Origin: Promethearchaeota archaeon
GTDB taxonomy: Archaea > Asgardarchaeota > Lokiarchaeia > Sigyniarchaeales > Promethearchaeaceae
Direction of reading: 5' to 3'
DNA: 32,000 nt
Assembly (NCBI GenBank): GCA_016933055.1
Contig: JAFGBS010000001.1
Span: 90,001-122,000, forward strand
Shown here piece after piece: positions 1,955 to 10,268 of the stretch. How positions within the stretch are numbered: position 1 is the stretch's first letter; every line of letters begins with the position of its first letter. The translations under genes were made by a program, and so were the position numbers. Under the pieces are notes generated by a model. That model did no database searches, was not told the DNA's origin, and was given only the letters and a program-made list of their open reading frames with translations.

Positions 1955-2806
1955 TTAATAGTCTCCGGGAGTTTTACTTCGGATTCTCGGAGTTTTTTCC
2001 CGTATTTCTGGAGTTTTGGACTTCATATTTCGCATAAGGTCCTCTAAATCGCTTTGCATTTTATTTACCTTCCGCATTTTTTCATCTAAATCCTTTCTAT
2101 CTCTTTTCATTTGTTTTTGTTCATCTTCTAACCGTGAACGTTCCTTTCTAAGTTGATGTTTTTCATCCTCAATCCGTCTCCTCTCATTCTCAATTTTTTT
2201 ATTTTCATTTTTCAACAGATCATTATCTCGAAGGAGTCTATTGTATTCCTTTTCCTTATCATTAATTTTATTTTCTAATTGTCTCTGCTTCCGTTCTAAA
2301 TCAGGAATTGCCTTTTTATATTTGTTATATTCATCCTCCGCTCGTTTTGCTTTCTCTTCTGCATCACTTTTTCGTCTATTTAAGCGGTCTTCCTCTCTTC
2401 TTTTTTTATCTGCAAATTCTCTTTGATCATCGCGTAATTTTGTTACTTCGCGATTTATAGCATCTTCCCGACGATCTAAACGATCCTTTTCATCTTTCAT
2501 ACTTTTTTGTTGCTTTTCTAACCATGCATTTTCATTTAGGAGTTTATCCCGCTGTTTCTGTAATTCTTTAAGTTCTTGAATAAATTTTTGACGCTGCTGT
2601 TCTAACTCTTCCAAAGATTTAGGATATTTCTCCATTTTCTTTAAGATTTTTTGCCATTCTTTTCGTTCATCTTCTAATTTTTTACGTTCTTCCTCCAGTT
2701 TTTCCCATTGTTTACGAATATCATTCGAATCTACCTCAAGATATGGTTCAGGAGTTTTAGAAATAATATCTTTTGGTGTTTTTGATCGGATCTGCTTTCG
2801 TCCCAT
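1955..2806 (-). CDS. Long coiled-coil protein with SKTP-repeat head and tail
   Basis: 283-aa ORF with an ATG start. Hydrophobic residues fall at exact 7-residue spacing over residues 68-131 (L,F,L,L,L,M,L,I,L,F) and 191-261. The Pro-containing termini carry five (S/E)KTP motifs. Confidence 0.88.
   Translation of the reverse strand: MGRKQIRSKTPKDIISKTPEPYLEVDSNDIRKQWEKLEEERKKLEDERKEWQKILKKMEKYPKSLEELEQQRQKFIQELKELQKQRDKLLNENAWLEKQQKSMKDEKDRLDRREDAINREVTKLRDDQREFADKKRREEDRLNRRKSDAEEKAKRAEDEYNKYKKAIPDLERKQRQLENKINDKEKEYNRLLRDNDLLKNENKKIENERRRIEDEKHQLRKERSRLEDEQKQMKRDRKDLDEKMRKVNKMQSDLEDLMRNMKSKTPEIREKTPRIRSKTPGDY
1968..2017 (-). repeat. Degenerate 21-bp-period repeat encoding three KTP units
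   Basis: ggagtttt occurs at 1968, 1989 and 2010 on the + strand; on the - strand this region encodes MKSKTP-E-IREKTP-R-IRSKTP. Confidence 0.8.
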
Positions 2807-2958: not shown

Positions 2959-3330
2959 ATGTCAAAAGAATTTGATGAAGATTTAGATGAAGATTTAGAT
3001 GAAGACTTAGAGGAACCTGAGGTAGCATCTAAGACTCCAACCAAGGTTGTATCCAAAACTCCAGCTCCAAGAGTAGCAGGAAATGATCTTTCAATTTTCC
3101 TAATGTCCACTATTGGTCCTGGGGAAAAGAAGCAAAAATTATTAGTTAACACGGGGAATTCGGTCGGGGATATTAAACAGACAGTGGGAAGTATTTTCGG
3201 TGTAGATCCATCCGATTTCCACCTGAGTCATGGGGGAATCACAATGGATGATGGAAATTACTTAAAAGATTATCCCATAAAAGATGGAGATACAGTTCTA
3301 TTAATCCCGGCAAGTACTGCGGGGATGTAA
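2959..3330 (+). CDS. Ubiquitin-like (beta-grasp) protein with acidic N-terminal tail, ending STAG-M
   Basis: Residues ~43-122 align by eye with ubiquitin: SVGDIKQTVGSIFGVDPSDFHLSHGG vs [26 protein letters not shown], and YLKDYPIKDGDTVLLI vs TLSDYNIQKESTLHLV. It is the first gene of the E1/E2/JAMM cassette, with RBS-like gagga upstream. Confidence 0.9.
   Translation: MSKEFDEDLDEDLDEDLEEPEVASKTPTKVVSKTPAPRVAGNDLSIFLMSTIGPGEKKQKLLVNTGNSVGDIKQTVGSIFGVDPSDFHLSHGGITMDDGNYLKDYPIKDGDTVLLIPASTAGM
2974..3009 (+). repeat. 12-bp tandem repeat x3 encoding (DEDL)3
   Basis: gatgaagattta / gatgaagattta / gatgaagactta; one mismatch in the third copy. Confidence 0.95.
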
Positions 3331-3417
3331 TAACAATTTTTCTTTACTCCCTTTTATAAACCAAGTAATCAGAATTAGTTATCCTATACAAGTATTAAAC
3401 TTACCGAGTAGCTTGGA

Positions 3418-4665
3418 ATGTCAGAATCAGATTTTTTTTCAAATAATCTTACAGAAGAAGAACGTGAATTATATGATCGACAATTTCGCTTACAAGGATG
3501 GAATCAAAGCATATTAAAAAACTCTCGAGTATTGATGGTAGGGGTGGGAGGGTTAGGATGTGAAATTGCTAAAAATCTGACAATGGTGGGAGTAGGACAT
3601 ATAGACTTAGTTGATTTGGATGTAATAGAACATTCCAACTTAAACCGACAGATGCTTTTTATAGGTGCGAAGGTTGCTCGTCCGAAAGCTCTAGCAGCAG
3701 TTGATATGCTGAAAAAAATTAACCCAAATATCACCATTAAAGGATATCGTTCCTCATTGGAACAATTACCTCCCGTATTATACAAAAAAGCCGATGTGAT
3801 TATCAGTGGATTGGATTCCATGCAAGCACGCCTAAACCTAAATACTCAAGTTATTCGGTTTAATAAACCTCTCGTGGATGGTGGTGTAAATGGATATCAC
3901 GGTCACATTTATACAATTTTTCCTAAAATAAATGCATGCTTTGAGTGTTATTCCGTTTCCTCCTCTGAAAGTGATGATATGGCTGCATGTACCGTAGTAG
4001 GAATACCCCGCAAACGAATCCATTGTTTGTTTAAAGCAATGATGAAATTTGAGGAGATTAATTCAAATCCCCCTAATGTGAAGAATATTAAAGAACTCAA
4101 ATTTTTGAAGGATAATGCTAATGAATTGGTGGAAAAATTTGGATTCGAACCCCTATTTGAAGAAAAAGAAATCATTCAAATTATTGATCACCATGATCCG
4201 GGAATTATTACCATCAATGCAGTAATTGCGAGCATACAGTCGCACGAGGTGATTAAAATACTGAATTATATTAAGGGTAATAAAGGATTGGGAATTCCGA
4301 ATAAATCTTACATTATCTATAATGGTATGACAGCTCGATTTTATCATTTGGACAAACCACGGAATGATAAATGCCCTCAATGCGGGGATGACGTCCTTTG
4401 GGAAGACTTCTATTTACGCAAAGATCAGCCCCTACAGTTAATTATTGATGGATTGAAAATGAAAGGTCATAACTTAGATTCTGAAATGGAACCGATTATA
4501 ACCATACCAGATTTTAACTCCATTCGGGAACTGGATCTGCAGAGAACTGTCCTGGAAAATAGATTGTTTCCACTCTCATTACTCACAATTTCTGGATTCA
4601 CAGAAGGGGATATTTATGTTACTCTGCATATATTCAAAGATAAGACCCTCAAACACAGTTCATAA
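3418..4665 (+). CDS. Ubiquitin-activating enzyme E1 (ThiF/MoeB superfamily, UBA3-like)
   Basis: YDRQ, GVGGLG and DLDVIEHSNLNRQ adenylation motifs. Zn motifs CFEC and CPQC. The catalytic Cys191 segment ACTVVGIPRKRIHC matches UBA3 MCTIASMPRLPEHC. There is a ~90-aa C-terminal extension. Confidence 0.93.
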   Translation: MSESDFFSNNLTEEERELYDRQFRLQGWNQSILKNSRVLMVGVGGLGCEIAKNLTMVGVGHIDLVDLDVIEHSNLNRQMLFIGAKVARPKALAAVDMLKKINPNITIKGYRSSLEQLPPVLYKKADVIISGLDSMQARLNLNTQVIRFNKPLVDGGVNGYHGHIYTIFPKINACFECYSVSSSESDDMAACTVVGIPRKRIHCLFKAMMKFEEINSNPPNVKNIKELKFLKDNANELVEKFGFEPLFEEKEIIQIIDHHDPGIITINAVIASIQSHEVIKILNYIKGNKGLGIPNKSYIIYNGMTARFYHLDKPRNDKCPQCGDDVLWEDFYLRKDQPLQLIIDGLKMKGHNLDSEMEPIITIPDFNSIRELDLQRTVLENRLFPLSLLTISGFTEGDIYVTLHIFKDKTLKHSS

Positions 4666-4695
4666 TAAATATAAAAAATATCAAAAGGAAGAAAT

Positions 4696-5223
4696 ATGTC
4701 AATCAGACAAAAGCGAGTATCCCAAGAATTTGCTCGTTTGAAGAAATTGTATAAAGAAGGTACAATCAAACAGCTGAAAGCTTTTGATTCCGAGAAAAAA
4801 AGTATTGATCATCTGAAGATCCTAATTCAAGGACCAAAAGGAAGTGCTTATCAGGGAGGTTATTTCAAATTAGAAATGAAATTTCCTAAGGATTATCCAA
4901 ATCAACCCCCCTTCGTACGACTACATACTCCTATTTGGCATCCCAATTTCTGGCCTAAACCAACGGAATACTCAGGTCAACGGAATATTTGTTTAGCATT
5001 AATAGATCCAAATTTTATCGGGAAAAAAGGCGGATGGAGCCCATCCAAGACTTCTGTGACGGTCGTACAAGCAATTATTGCAATGTTGAACACTTCGGGA
5101 CAATATATTAACCCTACTGATGTTTTTAACAAAAAAGCAGCCCTGGAAATGATGGAAAATCGAAAGAAATTTGATAAAAAGGTTAAAAATCTTGTTAGAA
5201 AATATGCCAACCAAAAATGGTAA
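4696..5223 (+). CDS. Ubiquitin-conjugating enzyme E2 (UBC fold)
   Basis: GPKGSAYQGGYFKLEMKFPKDYPNQPP, HPN (82-84), catalytic Cys99 in NICLAL, WSP, and NPTDVFNKKAA. Confidence 0.95.
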   Translation: MSIRQKRVSQEFARLKKLYKEGTIKQLKAFDSEKKSIDHLKILIQGPKGSAYQGGYFKLEMKFPKDYPNQPPFVRLHTPIWHPNFWPKPTEYSGQRNICLALIDPNFIGKKGGWSPSKTSVTVVQAIIAMLNTSGQYINPTDVFNKKAALEMMENRKKFDKKVKNLVRKYANQKW

Positions 5224-5243
5224 TTGGAGGATAGGTCACCGAA

Positions 5244-6044
5244 ATGGACGACGAAGAATCAATGGATATTGAAAGCTTGAAAGAAAAGTTAAAAGCTGAA
5301 ATGCTCCAAAAATTACGCAAAGAAATTAAAAAAGAAGTACTAATGGAGATTTACAATGAATTAAAGTCTGAAGAGAAAGAGACAATCCAAAATAAAATTG
5401 CACATGAAAATCATGAGATCGGAAAATATGAATCTGATTCCAAAGGAGAACTCGTAAGAGAGGGCACAAAGAAAGAAAAAGTTCTTGTTCAAATTAAAAC
5501 GATTATGAAAGTTGTATCCCATGCTTTGAAATATGCTAACAACAATATCCCTAAAGAGTACTGGGTAGAAGTAATCGGTTTGTTATCGGGAAAATTCGAC
5601 CAGAAAAAAAATATTGTCACAATCGAAGATGCTTATCCAATGGGACATGGAAATGCTGTGTACGCCGAAATTAAAGATTATAAGAATTTTGTAAGAGCCT
5701 ATCAAGATTTAAGTTCTAAAGGGCAATTTATTTGCGGTTGGTATCATTCTCATCCTTCATATGGGCTTTTTTTATCTTCTGAAGATATGGGGACTCAAGC
5801 CCGATATCAGAAATTTTGGGATAAATCGTTGGCTTTAGTAATTGATCCCACCCAGATAGATGGAAATAAATTGGGATTCGACATCTTTCGAGCGAATATG
5901 CGAACAAAAAAGTGGTATAAAGTTCCTTTTTTAATCGAAGGAAATTTAGATGCAAAATCTTTACCGGGATTGGTTGATTTCGTGAATCCCATTGTTGAAG
6001 GAAAGAAAATATTTTTAGAATATGATGAATCTACCAGCGGATAA
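5244..6044 (+). CDS. JAMM/MPN+ metalloprotease (Rpn11-like deubiquitylase or maturase) with N-terminal extension
   Basis: E109 in EVIGLL and an intact H168-S-H170-x7-S178-x2-D181 JAMM motif (GWYHSHPSYGLFLSSED); ALVIDP follows. Confidence 0.95.
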   Translation: MDDEESMDIESLKEKLKAEMLQKLRKEIKKEVLMEIYNELKSEEKETIQNKIAHENHEIGKYESDSKGELVREGTKKEKVLVQIKTIMKVVSHALKYANNNIPKEYWVEVIGLLSGKFDQKKNIVTIEDAYPMGHGNAVYAEIKDYKNFVRAYQDLSSKGQFICGWYHSHPSYGLFLSSEDMGTQARYQKFWDKSLALVIDPTQIDGNKLGFDIFRANMRTKKWYKVPFLIEGNLDAKSLPGLVDFVNPIVEGKKIFLEYDESTSG

Positions 6045-6121
6045 GCCTTTTATCTTTATTTTTTGTTTATTCATCATAAGCCATGCTTTTAGGATATAAT
6101 TAATTATATTGTGTGATTTAA

Positions 6122-7312
6122 GTGCAAAAAAGAATTCTAAAAATCATAATATATGTGGTCATAATTGGACTTAGTCTTCTGATTGGAGTGATATTAGGCT
6201 ATACTCCCTCCAATTCTCTGAATGGATTCTTTTCATTTTTATTCATTGGTATCTGGTTGTCATACACTATTACCGTCTTGTTTCGAATTAAAAAAATGAG
6301 AGAATACCATTCTTCGTTAAATAATGCTCTATTAATATTCGGTGATTTATTCATTTCGGCATTTTACGGAATATGGGGTGATTTTACCCCTATTCTTATT
6401 CAAAGAATATTTCCCACTACATCTATGAAAATTAATCTCTGGACTGCGACTTTCTCTTTGCCATACCTAATATTTGGGACCTTCCTTCTACTTTTCTCTA
6501 TTACTAAATATTTTGCAGTATATCTCGGTAATAAAGCAATCAATGCTCGAAAATTTACAATATTTACGGGAATTGTGTTTCTGGGACTAGATTTAAGCTA
6601 TATATTATTGCGGCAAGGAATATACACCTTAGATTTTTTGGATCTCTCTCACCTATATGGAACTTTCAACGTGTATATCACCGTACATATGGGGATTATC
6701 GTGTTTTTTGGAATAGTGGGGATTATAACTCGAAATCGTTCGATGACTTCATATAATTTAGATCAACTCACCTCTCGTATGAATGATATCGATCGTCGTA
6801 TCAATGATGCCGAAATTGCCTCTGCAGCAGCACAAAGGAGTGAACAAAGGGCCCGGGATGCTGAAAAAGAGCGGCAAAGGCGTATAGCTCGCGCTGAACA
6901 ACGAAAAAAGGATAAATCTCTGAAACAACAACGTTCTTCCCCTAAAGTTTTACGTCCCACTTCCACAGCTCAATCTTCACGAAAGACTTCTGCATCTAAA
7001 TCTCGGGGATCCTCGTTAAGTGCTAAACAATTGATGGAAATGAAGCCTAAAACGGGTACTTTGAGTAAGGAGGACTTTATGTGCATCTTTTGCTTTGAAC
7101 TGCCAACTACTTCTGATAAGGGACGTGGTATTGTATTATGCCCCCACTGTCGTTATCCGGCTCATTATGACGAGTTTATGAAGTGGGTACGAAATTCAAA
7201 TTTGTGTTCCCGCTGTGATGGAGTGATACCTGCTAGCTTTATTCGCAACCCTACAATCATCCCAGTCAAAACCTATCTAAAAGTTTATAAACATTTTAAA
7301 AAGTACTTTTAA
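6122..7312 (+). CDS. Multi-pass membrane protein with C-terminal RING-like zinc finger; putative membrane-anchored E3 ligase
   Basis: GTG start. About six hydrophobic segments in residues 7-202, then a charged helical linker, an S/K/R-rich spacer, and C321-x2-C324...C340-x2-C343-x4-H348-x2-E351-x3-W355...C362-x2-C365. Confidence 0.8.
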   Translation: MQKRILKIIIYVVIIGLSLLIGVILGYTPSNSLNGFFSFLFIGIWLSYTITVLFRIKKMREYHSSLNNALLIFGDLFISAFYGIWGDFTPILIQRIFPTTSMKINLWTATFSLPYLIFGTFLLLFSITKYFAVYLGNKAINARKFTIFTGIVFLGLDLSYILLRQGIYTLDFLDLSHLYGTFNVYITVHMGIIVFFGIVGIITRNRSMTSYNLDQLTSRMNDIDRRINDAEIASAAAQRSEQRARDAEKERQRRIARAEQRKKDKSLKQQRSSPKVLRPTSTAQSSRKTSASKSRGSSLSAKQLMEMKPKTGTLSKEDFMCIFCFELPTTSDKGRGIVLCPHCRYPAHYDEFMKWVRNSNLCSRCDGVIPASFIRNPTIIPVKTYLKVYKHFKKYF

Positions 7313-7399: not shown

Positions 7400-8824
7400 T
7401 TAAAGATTTAATCTGGATAACTCTTTTTTTATGTCTTCAACTTTTTCTTTTGTTAAATTATACATACAAATCATCAAGATTGTCCCTAACAGATAAAATA
7501 GGGCAGGAACTAAAGACATGTGTATTCTAACACCCCATTGTACAATTAGAGTCGCAGGGAGTTCTGGATCGTAACCCGTTATGTTGTGTATCACACCAAT
7601 GGCAACTGCTTGAATCACAATTGCAAATCGGCCAAAGAATGTGCGTATCCCAACAAAAATTCCCTCATTTCGCTTTCCCGTTTTTACTGCTATCTCGTCC
7701 AGCACATCTGATAAACCTGGATACATTAATGTCCACATAGCTGAGATACTAATCCCAAGAAAGAAAGTTATGATTATACCAGAAATTAAATTGTCTGCAA
7801 AAAAGAAGAACTCGAATAACCATACAGTTGATGCCAATCCTCCCAAAATAAATGCCTTTCGATTTCCTAATTTTCTCGCAACCCACGTCCATATGGGTAC
7901 TGATAATATTACTCCTATCAACAAGGCTGCGGACACATAAGTTTCAATTTCTGCATTCGTGGAATCAAGTATATCCTCAATCCAGAACGGAAGAGATCCC
8001 AACATAAGACTCGTCATAACCATGTGGCCTAGAAAGAAGATTATATAACTCATAAAATTCTTTTGTTTCAGAGAAAACAGTAGCGAATTCCAATAACTCT
8101 CTTTCTTTCCTTCCTTTTTCAGTACTTGTTCTTCTTGAATTAATTCCCATTGTCTCTGTTTAGTCGCTTCATCTTCCCGCATTCCTGGAATAATCAATAA
8201 TGCAATACCTACTGCAACTGCGGCAACAAAAATTCCTTGTAGAATGAAACCAAAGACATTTTCATAATCTCCAACAATCATTGGAGGAACTAAGATACCT
8301 AATACAGTACCAATGATCCCCCATATGGTGGTAGATGCTCCAACTCTTGTTCTTTCTTCTTGAGTTCGAAATTTTACCGGGAATAGGGCTAGCCAGTTCA
8401 ACTGCCATAAGGAGAAAAGCATATCAAATAGGCAAATAGTCCCAAGTAGCCAGAAGAACATGCCCAAAGCATTAAGAGGAGGTACCGTAAAAATGATCAG
8501 ATAAGACAATGCAAATGGGATGGACGCGCCTATATACCATGGAAATCTACGTCCCAATCGTCGAATCCATTTGTATGGTCTATCTGAAAGCCATCCTGCA
8601 AATGGATCATTCAACATATTGAATATGCCATAAATTATTATCGCAATTGCCACATATGCCCCCGGTATATTTAACACATTTTCATAGAAATGATACACAC
8701 GGATACTGAATGCGGATGTCGTAAAATTATCCAAAAATCCTCCTAATCCATACGAGTTATGCATCAAGAACCGTTTCCAATTCGTTTTTCGTTTTTCTTC
8801 ACGTGTTTGAGTTCGTATTTCCAA
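7400..8824 (-). CDS. MFS transporter, GPH/MelB-like cation:sugar symporter family
   Basis: NMLNDPFAGWLSDR motif, EERTRV, DVLDEIAVKTGKRNEGIF and ~12 hydrophobic segments. The tracked start is TTG; the true start is uncertain. Confidence 0.9.
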   Translation of the reverse strand: MEIRTQTREEKRKTNWKRFLMHNSYGLGGFLDNFTTSAFSIRVYHFYENVLNIPGAYVAIAIIIYGIFNMLNDPFAGWLSDRPYKWIRRLGRRFPWYIGASIPFALSYLIIFTVPPLNALGMFFWLLGTICLFDMLFSLWQLNWLALFPVKFRTQEERTRVGASTTIWGIIGTVLGILVPPMIVGDYENVFGFILQGIFVAAVAVGIALLIIPGMREDEATKQRQWELIQEEQVLKKEGKKESYWNSLLFSLKQKNFMSYIIFFLGHMVMTSLMLGSLPFWIEDILDSTNAEIETYVSAALLIGVILSVPIWTWVARKLGNRKAFILGGLASTVWLFEFFFFADNLISGIIITFFLGISISAMWTLMYPGLSDVLDEIAVKTGKRNEGIFVGIRTFFGRFAIVIQAVAIGVIHNITGYDPELPATLIVQWGVRIHMSLVPALFYLLGTILMICMYNLTKEKVEDIKKELSRLNL

Positions 8825-8843
8825 AATATTTTTCCTCCAAATT

Positions 8844-10268
8844 TTAATTTACATGAAAAGGAACCTTTGCACCCGGTTCCAAAGGTGATATATAGGGATC
8901 TTTCTCTAGTTTGGCGTGTAATTCACCTTGTGCTTTCGAAATTAATTCGGGATTTTTTATGAATTCCACACTTGCTTCAGCAAGAATCCTGGCGGCATTA
9001 ATCATCCCTTTATAAGCAATAGAACTTTTATTTTGAGCTACTCGCTGCCAGCTATGACCTGGTGTACTTATGGAGTAGCATGCTTCCTTAAATTCTCCCG
9101 TAGGGACAACCCAACATACATCAGCGACATCAGTGCTTCCCGGAATTGTAATATCCCGCCCAAATATCGGCAAATTTACATCACACAAAACTTTACCTTC
9201 AAAGACTTGTGCGAGCGGTAGAAATTCCGCAGGAATAATAGACCTGATCGCATCAATGAATTTCACAGGAATGGTTTGTTCAAATTTTTGCGCTAGTTCT
9301 TCATCTTCGGTATCGAATTTTGGTGCTCCTATTTTTTCCATTGTCTTTTGAAGAACTTCTTCTACAACGGAATTCGAAAGATAGTTAGAGCATCCTCCTA
9401 CTTGTTCAATATTCACCGATGTTTCGGTCATTACTGCCGCTCCGTTTGCGACTTTCTTCAGTCGCTCAAATATTTCATTTACTTGCCGGATATTCGGAGC
9501 TCGAATGTAATAATAGGACTCTGCATATTCCGGTACGATATTGGGAGCATCCCCCCCTTTTGTGATAATATAATGCATTTTTCCCTGTGTTGTAATATGT
9601 TCACGCAGGTAATTTGCCCCCACATTCATTAATTCAACTGCATCTAACGCGCTTCTTCCACGATGGGGGTCACTTGCAGCATGTGCACTAGTACCATGGA
9701 ATTTAAAGAGTACTTTTATAACGGCTTCGGAATTCTGTACATTTACCATATTAATGGCTTCGGGATGCCAAGTCAAGGCAATATCTACATCCTGAAACGC
9801 TCCATCCCGTACCATGTAAACTTTCGCACTCCCCCCTTCCTCGGCGGGACAACCATAATATCTGATTGTCGCTTGGATCTCTTTCGCATCAATTGCTTGT
9901 TTTAATGCAAGACATGCCATCATAGGTGCTACACCCAATAAATTGTGTCCGCACCCATGACCTGGACCGCCTTCTTCAATCGGGTCCTTGTAAGGAACGG
10001 GCTTTTGGGACATCCCTGGTAAGGCATCGTATTCCCCCAACAATGCAATGACAGGTTTTTCTGATCCATATTCTGCAATAAAAGCAGTAGGAATATCAGC
10101 CACATTCTCGATCAATCTAAATCCATGTTCATTAAGAATGGATTTTAACAATGCGGCGGATTTATATTCTTTCCATTTTAGTTCTGCATATTCCCAAATC
10201 TTATCACTTGTATCGATCGCGAGTTGGGAATGCTCATCAATCCAGTTTTGCATATCCATACAAATCAT
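8844..10268 (-). CDS. abgB: M20-family amidohydrolase, p-aminobenzoyl-glutamate hydrolase subunit B-like
   Basis: LGEYDALPG, GHGCGHNLLG, YYGCPAEEG, WHP, GSTDVADVCWVVPT and PGHSWQ. The family is recognised; the substrate is not established. Confidence 0.85.
   Translation of the reverse strand: MICMDMQNWIDEHSQLAIDTSDKIWEYAELKWKEYKSAALLKSILNEHGFRLIENVADIPTAFIAEYGSEKPVIALLGEYDALPGMSQKPVPYKDPIEEGGPGHGCGHNLLGVAPMMACLALKQAIDAKEIQATIRYYGCPAEEGGSAKVYMVRDGAFQDVDIALTWHPEAINMVNVQNSEAVIKVLFKFHGTSAHAASDPHRGRSALDAVELMNVGANYLREHITTQGKMHYIITKGGDAPNIVPEYAESYYYIRAPNIRQVNEIFERLKKVANGAAVMTETSVNIEQVGGCSNYLSNSVVEEVLQKTMEKIGAPKFDTEDEELAQKFEQTIPVKFIDAIRSIIPAEFLPLAQVFEGKVLCDVNLPIFGRDITIPGSTDVADVCWVVPTGEFKEACYSISTPGHSWQRVAQNKSSIAYKGMINAARILAEASVEFIKNPELISKAQGELHAKLEKDPYISPLEPGAKVPFHVN

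Follow-up and report, generated by a model that had tools for sequence, protein, structure and literature searches.

The last gene of the ubiquitin operon in a Promethearchaeota archaeon encodes a membrane-anchored RING-like protein, here called mRING, which, judging from its sequence and its structural model, probably serves the Asgard ubiquitin operon as an E3-type component resident in the membrane. The gene lies in a stretch of 32,000 nt (hereafter the window) that covers positions 90,001-122,000 of contig JAFGBS010000001.1, assembly GCA_016933055.1, and that is AT-rich, with a GC content of ~35%. In the literature found, the E3s of Asgard archaea and of Caldiarchaeum are small soluble RINGs (PMC5654768; 10.1101/2023.07.25.550441), and one survey sought Asgard E3s only through the InterPro entry of the UFM1 ligase (Hatano et al. 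2022, PMC9192718). In the literature searched, we came across no account of a membrane-bound RING encoded in an Asgard ubiquitin operon; an earlier mention in a 2011 survey of prokaryotic RINGs is possible. What appears to be new in mRING is the combination predicted from model and alignment: a RING E3 like those of the archaeal operons, joined to a membrane domain that is an orphan, with a glutamate at a zinc-ligand position.

The mRING gene occupies positions 6122..7312 of the forward strand, an open frame of 396 amino acid residues with a GTG start and a stop codon at 7310-7312. In the alignment, the homologues start at or slightly upstream of the position of this GTG. The public call of the gene (P0002), which is 100% identical at a query coverage of 97%, has 385 residues and is thus 11 residues shorter; its start appears to fit the second in-frame GTG, at 6155. 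The longer N-terminus is backed by the homologues, and it carries basic Lys/Arg residues ahead of the first transmembrane (TM) helix. A search of 5.8 billion proteins returned 176 matches. The best 120 of these are 337-447 residues long, with a query coverage of 84-100% in all except two, and those that are named are called 'hypothetical protein'. The matches listed come from Promethearchaeota/Lokiarchaeota, Lokiarchaeum ossiferum, Harpocratesius and metagenome-assembled genomes labelled Thor-, Hod- or Hermodarchaeota; L. ossiferum, which has been cultivated, has an mRING orthologue (P0015). Because about 176 full-length homologues, of some 360-450 residues, exist and their synteny is conserved, a chance open reading frame (ORF) is excluded. 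The initial annotation of this DNA, made from the sequence alone, had described a gene for a polytopic membrane RING protein, and the observation is confirmed here: the ORF, six TM helices, a long helix, a disordered basic spacer, a confidently folded C-terminal domain and adjacency to the JAB gene were all recovered.

The main family alignment consists of 43 mRING homologues, and its mean column identity is 69% in the C-terminal 92 residues and 53% in the TM region. A divergent clade, which includes Heimdallarchaeota (B3_Heim among them), Hodarchaeota (Hodarchaeum mangrovi among them), Borrarchaeum and Sigynarchaeum, aligns with the 43-sequence profile in hhalign at 100%, E 4e-45, over 363 columns that span both the TM domain and the RING. 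By these alignments, mRING is full-length and kept across Lokiarchaeia, Borrarchaeia, Heimdallarchaeia and Hodarchaeales. The mRING profile matches 95 of the 201 Asgard species genomes sampled, the weaker matches being soluble RINGs outside the mRING family. When the whole protein and three pieces of it were compared with Pfam, no family reached its cut-off.

The structure of mRING was modelled with AlphaFold2 on the 43 homologues (mean predicted local distance difference test score, pLDDT, 84.9). Residues 301-396 (7022..7309, forward strand) form a domain of the RING/U-box fold with flanking helices, as assigned with Foldseek, VIA-align and hhalign. The domain is compact and well modelled at residues 301-393, with a pLDDT of about 85-96. 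Its core contains four pairs of putative zinc ligands, C321 and C324, C340 and C343, H348 and E351, and C362 and C365 (7082..7216, forward strand), all of them invariant columns in the 43 sequences, and this RING-like core would bind metal. The signature is C-x2-C...C-P-x-C-x4-H-x2-E...C-x2-C, in which Glu replaces the sixth zinc ligand. Four further residues of the domain, F323, P341, W355 and R364, are invariant in the same sequences. The hydrophobic F323 lies between ligands 1 and 2, and W355 is held in a helix with the pattern H-x2-[ligand]-F-x2-W. E351 occupies the exact position of His in the soluble relatives. All 20 genomic loci inspected encode Glu at ligand position 6. Of 233 collected proteins, 210 have it too, and the weaker, non-membrane matches among the 233 have His (18), Asp or Cys.

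When the whole model was compared with the Protein Data Bank (PDB) in Foldseek, the best matches were RING/U-box chains. The first was 3lrq (E 0.023, probability 1.0, target-normalised template modelling score, TM-score, 0.61), and others were TRIM32, Ring1b/Bmi1, the LubX U-box, Rad18, the HRD1 RING (6f98) and EL5. A VIA-align search against 48,161 representatives gave RING matches over residues 312-396 to 3lrq, Ring1b, TRIM21, CHIP and Rad18, with Z 6.0-7.2 and a root mean square deviation (rmsd) of 3.3-4.3 over 70-74 residues; 3lrq was matched with Z 7.2 and rmsd 4.1 over 74 residues, and Ring1b with Z 6.8 and rmsd 3.3 over 70 residues. These RING matches are of one fold class, although modest in absolute score, and on the strength of the model the mRING domain has the RING/U-box fold. 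A profile of the domain, run against 1.84 billion representatives, found 121 proteins at E <=0.001, nearly all of which are ~360-450 residues long and end in this domain; the shorter matches are most simply explained as fragments.

The closest relatives of this domain are encoded in other archaeal ubiquitin operons. The mRING profile also finds ORFs of 83-104 residues in other Asgard families, where they adjoin E2 and E1 genes. These small RINGs pass the cut-offs of Prok-RING_1 and/or zf-RING_2, with 29.9-32.1 bits for the former and up to 33.7 bits for the latter, and they have the motif C-x2-C...C-P-x-C-x4-H-x2-H-[LF]-x2-W...C-P-x-C. The RING domain of mRING aligns with them in hhalign at 97.8%, E 8.9e-13, over 51 columns. 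By sequence, the zinc domain of mRING belongs to the archaeal Prok-RING_1/small-RING clade, and it is homologous to that of the small archaeal operon RINGs, such as the Caldiarchaeum srfp, the Helarchaeial RING E3 and other proteins of the Prok-RING_1 (PF14446)/zf-RING_2 type. Both forms have the motif C-x2-C...C-P-x-C-x4-H-x2-[ligand]-[LF]-x2-W...C-x2-C, both are encoded with an E1 and an E2, and both stand in the E3 slot of the operon. The small RINGs are soluble and have His at ligand 6 (C4-H-H-C2), whereas mRING has a six-TM domain of 215 residues, a tether of ~100 residues, the invariant Glu together with R364, and extra flanking helices; unlike the small operon RINGs, it falls below the Pfam cut-offs. 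The small soluble RING E3 of Caldiarchaeum is reported to be active in vitro (PMC5654768), as is a soluble Asgard RING E3 of the same type (10.1101/2023.07.25.550441). The RING-like domain proposed in the initial annotation is thus borne out by the fold matches as well as by this homology.

Several other RING proteins were seen in the same searches. Genomes of family f5 (Heimdall-labelled) that have mRING also encode a conserved soluble RING protein of ~195 residues and of the His type, which is not beside E1/E2 (L052:7646-8248, L053:7815-8396, L062:7713-8309, L063:8013-8591). It is composed of an N-terminal zinc ribbon, a helical middle, a RING and a C-terminal tail (E/D)-(E/L)-(I/L)-V-F-(T/V). 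In an Asgard protein of 580 residues, at L059:6480-8219(+), a NosD/beta-helix domain (E 3e-20) occurs together with a weak Vps23_core-like stretch (E 4e-4, under the cut-off) and, at the C-terminus, a Prok-RING_1 finger (29.6 bits). In the complete Asgard genome G012, five RING-containing ORFs lie within 9 kb (L058:7539-16499(-)), and in one of them (8347-9171) hydrophobic segments precede the RING. A likeness to zinc fingers of the intraflagellar transport A (IFT-A)/protocoatomer type was recurrent and not significant (P0001 residues 333-372, L056:7947-8222, L057:7764-8075, L052:7646-8248, L059:6480-8219). When the RING-domain profile of mRING was compared with PDB sequences, the C-terminal zinc domains of IFT144/WDR19 were matched at E 0.065-0.15 and RNF165 at E 0.73, all non-significant; IFT144/WDR19 shares the motif C-P-x-C-x-[FY]-P-A. 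Asgard RINGs gave sub-threshold Pfam matches to Zf_2nd_IFT121, Zn_ribbon_IFT122_C and zf-Vps39_C at E 7e-4 to 0.03.

The mRING gene is tightly linked to a ubiquitin cassette. Upstream, at 2959..6044 of the forward strand, is a cassette of four genes, each with a Pfam match above the cut-off: a ubiquitin-like protein (2959-3330), an E1 of the ThiF family (3418-4665), an E2 of the UQ_con family (4696-5223) and a JAB/MPN protease (5244-6044). The mRING gene begins 78 nt past the stop of the JAB/MPN gene, in agreement with the initial annotation, which had placed it directly after the JAMM gene. The 77-nt spacer, read from the sequence (6045..6121, forward strand), has a T-rich run at ~6049-6069 and an A/T-rich, TATA-like stretch at 6095-6109 that ends 12 nt before the GTG and could be the internal promoter of a leaderless transcript. 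A search for RNA data over the stretch of the operon returned none. A synteny survey had been proposed in the initial annotation as a check of the linkage to the cassette. We fetched ~19 kb around 20 mRING matches from at least 6 GTDB families and placed the window proteins by tblastn. The linkage was found in relatives throughout: 20 of 20 loci have mRING as the next gene downstream of JAB, in the same orientation. Loki-, Borr- and B3_Heim-type loci have the order Ub-E1-E2-JAB-mRING (Ub, ubiquitin), while in family f5 the order is E2-JAB-mRING, with Ub-E1 a few kb off. mRING is the sole RING encoded in the operon in these 20 loci and therefore fills the E3 slot.

In whole families the operon is near-universal, and it is present as a single, syntenic copy (33 of 41 genomes in f2, 19 of 21 in f5 and 10 of 10 in f22). 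Five genomes do not have mRING: G089, which is 92% complete, and four members of genus g5, at 90-100% completeness; they have only a divergent E2 (~135 bits) in another context, with neither Ub nor JAB. Since the genomes without mRING are also without the operon-type E2, mRING and the operon are jointly present or absent in the genomes examined. The genome of the window itself encodes both the operon E2 (325.6 bits) and a paralogue (133.3 bits), the latter at G000:C22:160047-160472(-). In genus g5, the E2 lies near a gene for a 530-residue E1-like protein, without Ub, JAB or RING (L124:8618-11393), and this divergent-E2 locus looks like a separate conjugation system. Bacterial operons with a ubiquitin-like protein, E1, E2 and JAB can be defence systems, and it was considered whether the operon is a ubiquitin-like anti-virus defence of the Bil type or of the cyclic-oligonucleotide-based antiphage signalling system (CBASS) type, with mRING as its effector. 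Apart from that precedent, such a reading is favoured by the match of the E1 to the E1-E2 models of PADLOC, which is a generic one. PADLOC gave no match for mRING or for the ubiquitin-like protein, its matches for E1, E2 and JAB were at superfamily level only, and a near-universal, single-copy and syntenic operon is unlike patchy defence islands, so that we regard a defence role as very improbable.

Other features were seen at these loci. A divergently transcribed coiled-coil protein (1955..2806, reverse strand) has tblastn matches in L032-L036 and L038-L040; its gene adjoins the cassette in 8 of the 10 loci of Loki or Borr type that were examined, and none was found by tblastn in the Heimdall-clade loci. 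The roles suggested in the initial annotation, membrane-protein quality control or an anchor for this coiled-coil protein, are speculative. Several mRING loci carry one or two additional ubiquitin-like genes. Among the neighbours in Heimdall-clade loci, no genes of the ESCRT endosomal sorting machinery were found by Pfam in the ORFs scanned.

The initial annotation had named binding and stimulation of the E2 as a point on which its proposal would stand or fall. The operon E2 retains the HPN motif, the catalytic Cys and a W-S-P-S loop. A complex of this E2 with the RING domain and 2 Zn was predicted with a median interaction score (ipSAE) of 0.60 (0.60, 0.75 and 0.57 in the three runs), the best control having 0.02. 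Contact agreement between the runs was at least 84%, and the pLDDT of the partner was at least 89. In calibration, the mark that this prediction passes was reached by 58 of 80 solved complexes and by 2 of 110 mismatched pairs; an ipSAE <=0.60 occurred in only 7 of the 80 solved complexes and in both of the mismatched pairs that passed. The predicted complex thus lends E2 binding weak support, and its pass may reflect the likeness to solved RING-E2 complexes.

This weakness is one of several points that weigh against an E3-type function of mRING. The Foldseek E-values of the RING matches are modest (0.02 or above), and the VIA-align Z-scores are below 8. The Pfam RING models remain below their cut-offs, zf-RING_2 with 13.4 bits against 27.3 (E 0.1) and Prok-RING_1 with 10.7 bits against 29.1 (E 0.55). 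Glu as ligand 6 is unusual for zinc, and site 1 may be weakened or otherwise built. Many active RINGs carry an Arg/Lys 'linchpin' after the last Cys, and in mRING this Cys is followed by Asp or Asn. If the zinc site is degenerate in this way and the canonical linchpin is absent, mRING could be a non-catalytic membrane receptor or anchor, whose finger binds ubiquitin, the E2 or JAB and concentrates machinery or cargo, or it could be the main substrate through its Lys-rich tether. The sub-threshold Pfam scores, the weak support for E2 binding, and the Lys/Arg-rich tether and cytoplasmic loops described below would all suit such a protein. Three findings argue otherwise: W355 and F323, the hallmarks that contact an E2, are invariant; the domain has homologues among the small operon RINGs, a type for which activity has been shown (10.1101/2023.07.25.550441); and the operon, in which mRING takes the E3 slot, encodes no second RING. 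We consider an anchor or substrate role unlikely, and an E3-type role at the membrane is preferred.

The N-terminal part of mRING, residues 1-215 (6122..6766, forward strand), is predicted to be a six-helix TM domain with both termini inside the cell, based on the AlphaFold2 helices and on positive-inside counts. The six TM helices of the model consist of residues 2-24, 33-62, 69-85, 106-128, 142-164 and 184-202. Folded alone, the TM domain has a pLDDT of 86, a predicted TM-score (pTM) of 0.81 and the same elements as in the whole model. Conserved residues in this domain include G43, W45, K57, E61, N67, W85, G86, W107, P114 and Y115. TM4 and TM5 are connected by the basic cytoplasmic loop 4, residues 129-145 (6506..6556, forward strand), with the consensus KKY-x-V-I-Y-F-G-T-K-S-x-N-A-R-K-F. 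The loop is modelled as a β-hairpin at 132-141, with strands 132-135 and 138-141; its mean K+R is 4.4, and K129, Y130, Y134, G136, K138, A142, R143 and F145 are near-invariant in the 43-sequence alignment.

The TM domain is followed by a long charged helix, residues 213-269 (6758..6928, forward strand), in the AlphaFold2 model. Its structural matches are only to generic coiled coils, and it is lineage-specific, since other clades have R/S/T-rich low-complexity sequence in its place. The segment from this helix to the RING domain is a disordered basic spacer rich in Ser/Thr/Lys/Arg, residues 270-300 (6929..7021, forward strand), with pLDDT <50 at 272-296. Across the family, the linker has 92-154 residues and is, in most members, R/S/T/K-rich and of low complexity, with 19% R, 17% S and 13% T. 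In the model, helix and spacer together could be described as a flexible tether of ~100 residues. With regard to the initial annotation, the count of ~6 TM segments and the low-complexity spacer agree with the model; the helical linker at ~210-265 is also seen there, but it is a trait of this lineage and not of the family as a whole.

The topology of mRING is uniform by charge. In the 43 sequences, K+R has a median of 12 when summed over the N-terminus, loops 2 and 4 and the 15 residues that follow TM6, while loops 1, 3 and 5 have a median of 0 and acidic residues instead; K+R is higher inside than outside in 43 of 43 sequences. According to the positive-inside rule, mRING has its N- and C-termini in the cytoplasm, and the RING is therefore predicted to be cytoplasmic. 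This was also the outcome of interest in the topology check that the initial annotation had suggested, in which a RING facing outward would have spoken against it.

The most conserved positions of the TM domain are cytoplasmic, in loop 2 (K57, E61 and N67) and in the basic hairpin of loop 4. This conservation fits a docking surface more than a pore, and loop 4 is a candidate docking surface. The same observation bears on another reading, in which the main function lies in the TM domain, acting as a transporter, a channel, or a lipid-handling or signalling protein, and the RING serves self-regulation or turnover, as in auto-ubiquitinating membrane proteins. The TM domain is conserved like many enzymes, G43, W45, N67 and W107 being invariant and P114-Y115 nearly so, and the RING-less protein described next, if a paralogue, indicates that the TM module can stand alone. 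However, no transporter, channel or enzyme fold was matched above noise, the conservation peaks in cytoplasmic loops 2 and 4 and not in pore-lining positions, and coupling to the ubiquitin operon is strict over at least 6 families. A functional core in the membrane with an accessory RING is thus improbable, and we retain the E3-type role.

In Heimdall-clade loci (B3_Heim-type and related), a gene for ~195-213 residues directly 3' of mRING encodes a protein that resembles the TM domain and has neither linker nor RING (L045:8413-9000(-), L046:8474-9076(-), L047:8288-8926(-), L048:9024-9653(-)). It aligns with the mRING TM profile in hhalign at 94.6%, E 6.6e-8, over 153 columns, and it may be a partner or a paralogue of mRING.

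The initial annotation had compared mRING with the Hrd1 and Tul1 ligases, leaving homology of the TM domain aside. The layout is indeed alike. Hrd1/synoviolin and gp78 have a polytopic N-terminal membrane domain, a disordered region and a cytosolic RING that recruits a soluble E2, and the RING fold is common to HRD1 and mRING, 6f98 being among the Foldseek matches. Tul1 (of the Dsc complex), ligases of the RNF121/RNF145 type and Pex2/10/12 likewise have a multi-TM domain and then a C-terminal cytosolic RING. MARCH/Doa10 proteins are membrane-bound as well, with four Cys ahead of the His and a Trp-containing helix past ligand 6. The RING-CH of MARCH (C4HC3) is N-terminal to the TM segments, and its spacing is C-x-C and then x7 before His; the domain order of mRING, with the TM domain first and the RING last, is the reverse. 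RINGv had no Pfam match on mRING even at E up to 10, and the RINGv cluster of the Atlas had a TM-score of only 0.29. The RING of Hrd1 is a C3H2C3 RING-H2, whereas that of mRING is C-x2-C / C-x2-C / H-x2-E / C-x2-C. At mRING there are no counterparts of the Hrd1 partners Hrd3, Der1 and Usa1, and no sign of retrotranslocation.

Searches with the TM domain gave no relative. Its profile had no match among PDB sequences at E up to 10. The best Foldseek match of the TM-only model in the PDB had E 1.1, and chain 8ket_B of HRD1, a protein with which the initial annotation had proposed a comparison, came at rank 34 (E 3.6, probability 0.12, TM-scores 0.32/0.28). In the wide VIA-align search, the best Z was 7.9, to helical repeat, designed or generic bundles, and HRD1 was not listed; in the Atlas searches, TM-scores were below 0.5 except for the family's own unnamed cluster. 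The membrane domains of Hrd1, derlin, MARCH, Tul1 and the Pex RING proteins did not surface in the fold searches of PDB, VIA-align wide and Atlas. For Tul1, RNF121/RNF145 and Pex2/10/12, absence from the PDB-wide fold searches is not proof of difference; there was also no sequence similarity. Several candidates were considered and rejected. Designed helical bundles, MSP1 and VPS35L (whole and TM-only models) were within the noise for helical proteins, as were the four-helix cores of VKOR (probability ~0.2, Atlas TM-scores 0.36/0.49). Selenoprotein_S, on the charged helix (Pfam E 0.0065), and EMC6, on TM1-2 (Pfam E 0.006, with 17.5 bits where the cut-off is 23.3), were sub-threshold and taken as compositional. 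The TM domain is an orphan with no detectable relative.

The resemblance to eukaryotic ligases therefore concerns layout, and kinship with Hrd1, Tul1 or MARCH is unsupported, since the TM searches are at noise and the ligand pattern differs. That mRING is a true homologue or ancestor of Hrd1/gp78, Tul1, RNF145, MARCH or Pex2/10/12, acting as a ligase of retrotranslocation or quality control as in endoplasmic-reticulum-associated degradation (ERAD), has little to recommend it and is, in our opinion, most unlikely. The multi-TM domain followed by a cytosolic C-terminal RING, the presence of mRING in Hodarchaeales and Heimdallarchaeia, and the HRD1 RING among many RING matches would be in keeping with such an origin. 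They are outweighed by the null result of the TM profile, the poor score of 8ket_B and the generic bundles in VIA-align (Z <=7.9), by a C4-H-E-C2 pattern that is neither C3H2C3 nor C4HC3 with RING-CH spacing, and by the near-restriction of the domain to a single architecture among the 1.84 billion representatives.

The E3-type role at the membrane could be pictured as follows. The six TM helices would hold mRING in the cytoplasmic membrane, its two termini in the cytoplasm, and on the flexible, basic tether of ~100 residues the RING could reach far across the surface of the membrane. In the divergent binuclear zinc domain, site 1 would consist of C321, C324, H348 and E351, and site 2 of C340, C343, C362 and C365. 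The RING would dock the operon E2~ubiquitin thioester and promote the transfer of ubiquitin to lysines on proteins in or close to the membrane. Localisation and, probably, recognition of a substrate or partner would fall to the orphan TM domain with its conserved cytoplasmic loops, and the JAB protease would mature, remove and recycle the modifier. In this picture, we infer that Glu helps to bind zinc, that the RING binds the E2 and acts as a ligase, and which proteins are the substrates.

To date, every archaeal ubiquitin cascade that has been reconstituted used a small soluble RING; across much of the Asgard archaea, an unannotated polytopic membrane protein holds the operon's E3 slot instead. 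That the last gene of the operon encodes a membrane-tethered RING protein suggests that the ubiquitin system acts at the cell membrane, and mRING points to the membrane as the site of action of the ancestral ubiquitin system. The membrane form is cleanly marked by its invariant Glu in place of a zinc-ligand His, and the orthologue in Lokiarchaeum ossiferum offers a concrete handle for the first natural substrates. mRING also bears on the origin of ubiquitin-dependent membrane trafficking and of membrane quality control. Lokiarchaeia, Heimdallarchaeia and Hodarchaeales are the Asgard lineages closest to eukaryotes, and the only operon-encoded E3 in them would be an integral membrane protein whose TM fold is an orphan and whose RING contains Glu. 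It is a tentative thought, and one that we rate as rather doubtful, that their core ubiquitin system primarily tags membrane proteins. If this is true, membrane ubiquitination, on which both ubiquitin-dependent ESCRT sorting and ERAD-like extraction depend, would be older than the eukaryotes, and the soluble RING E3s would stand as a parallel form or a derived one.

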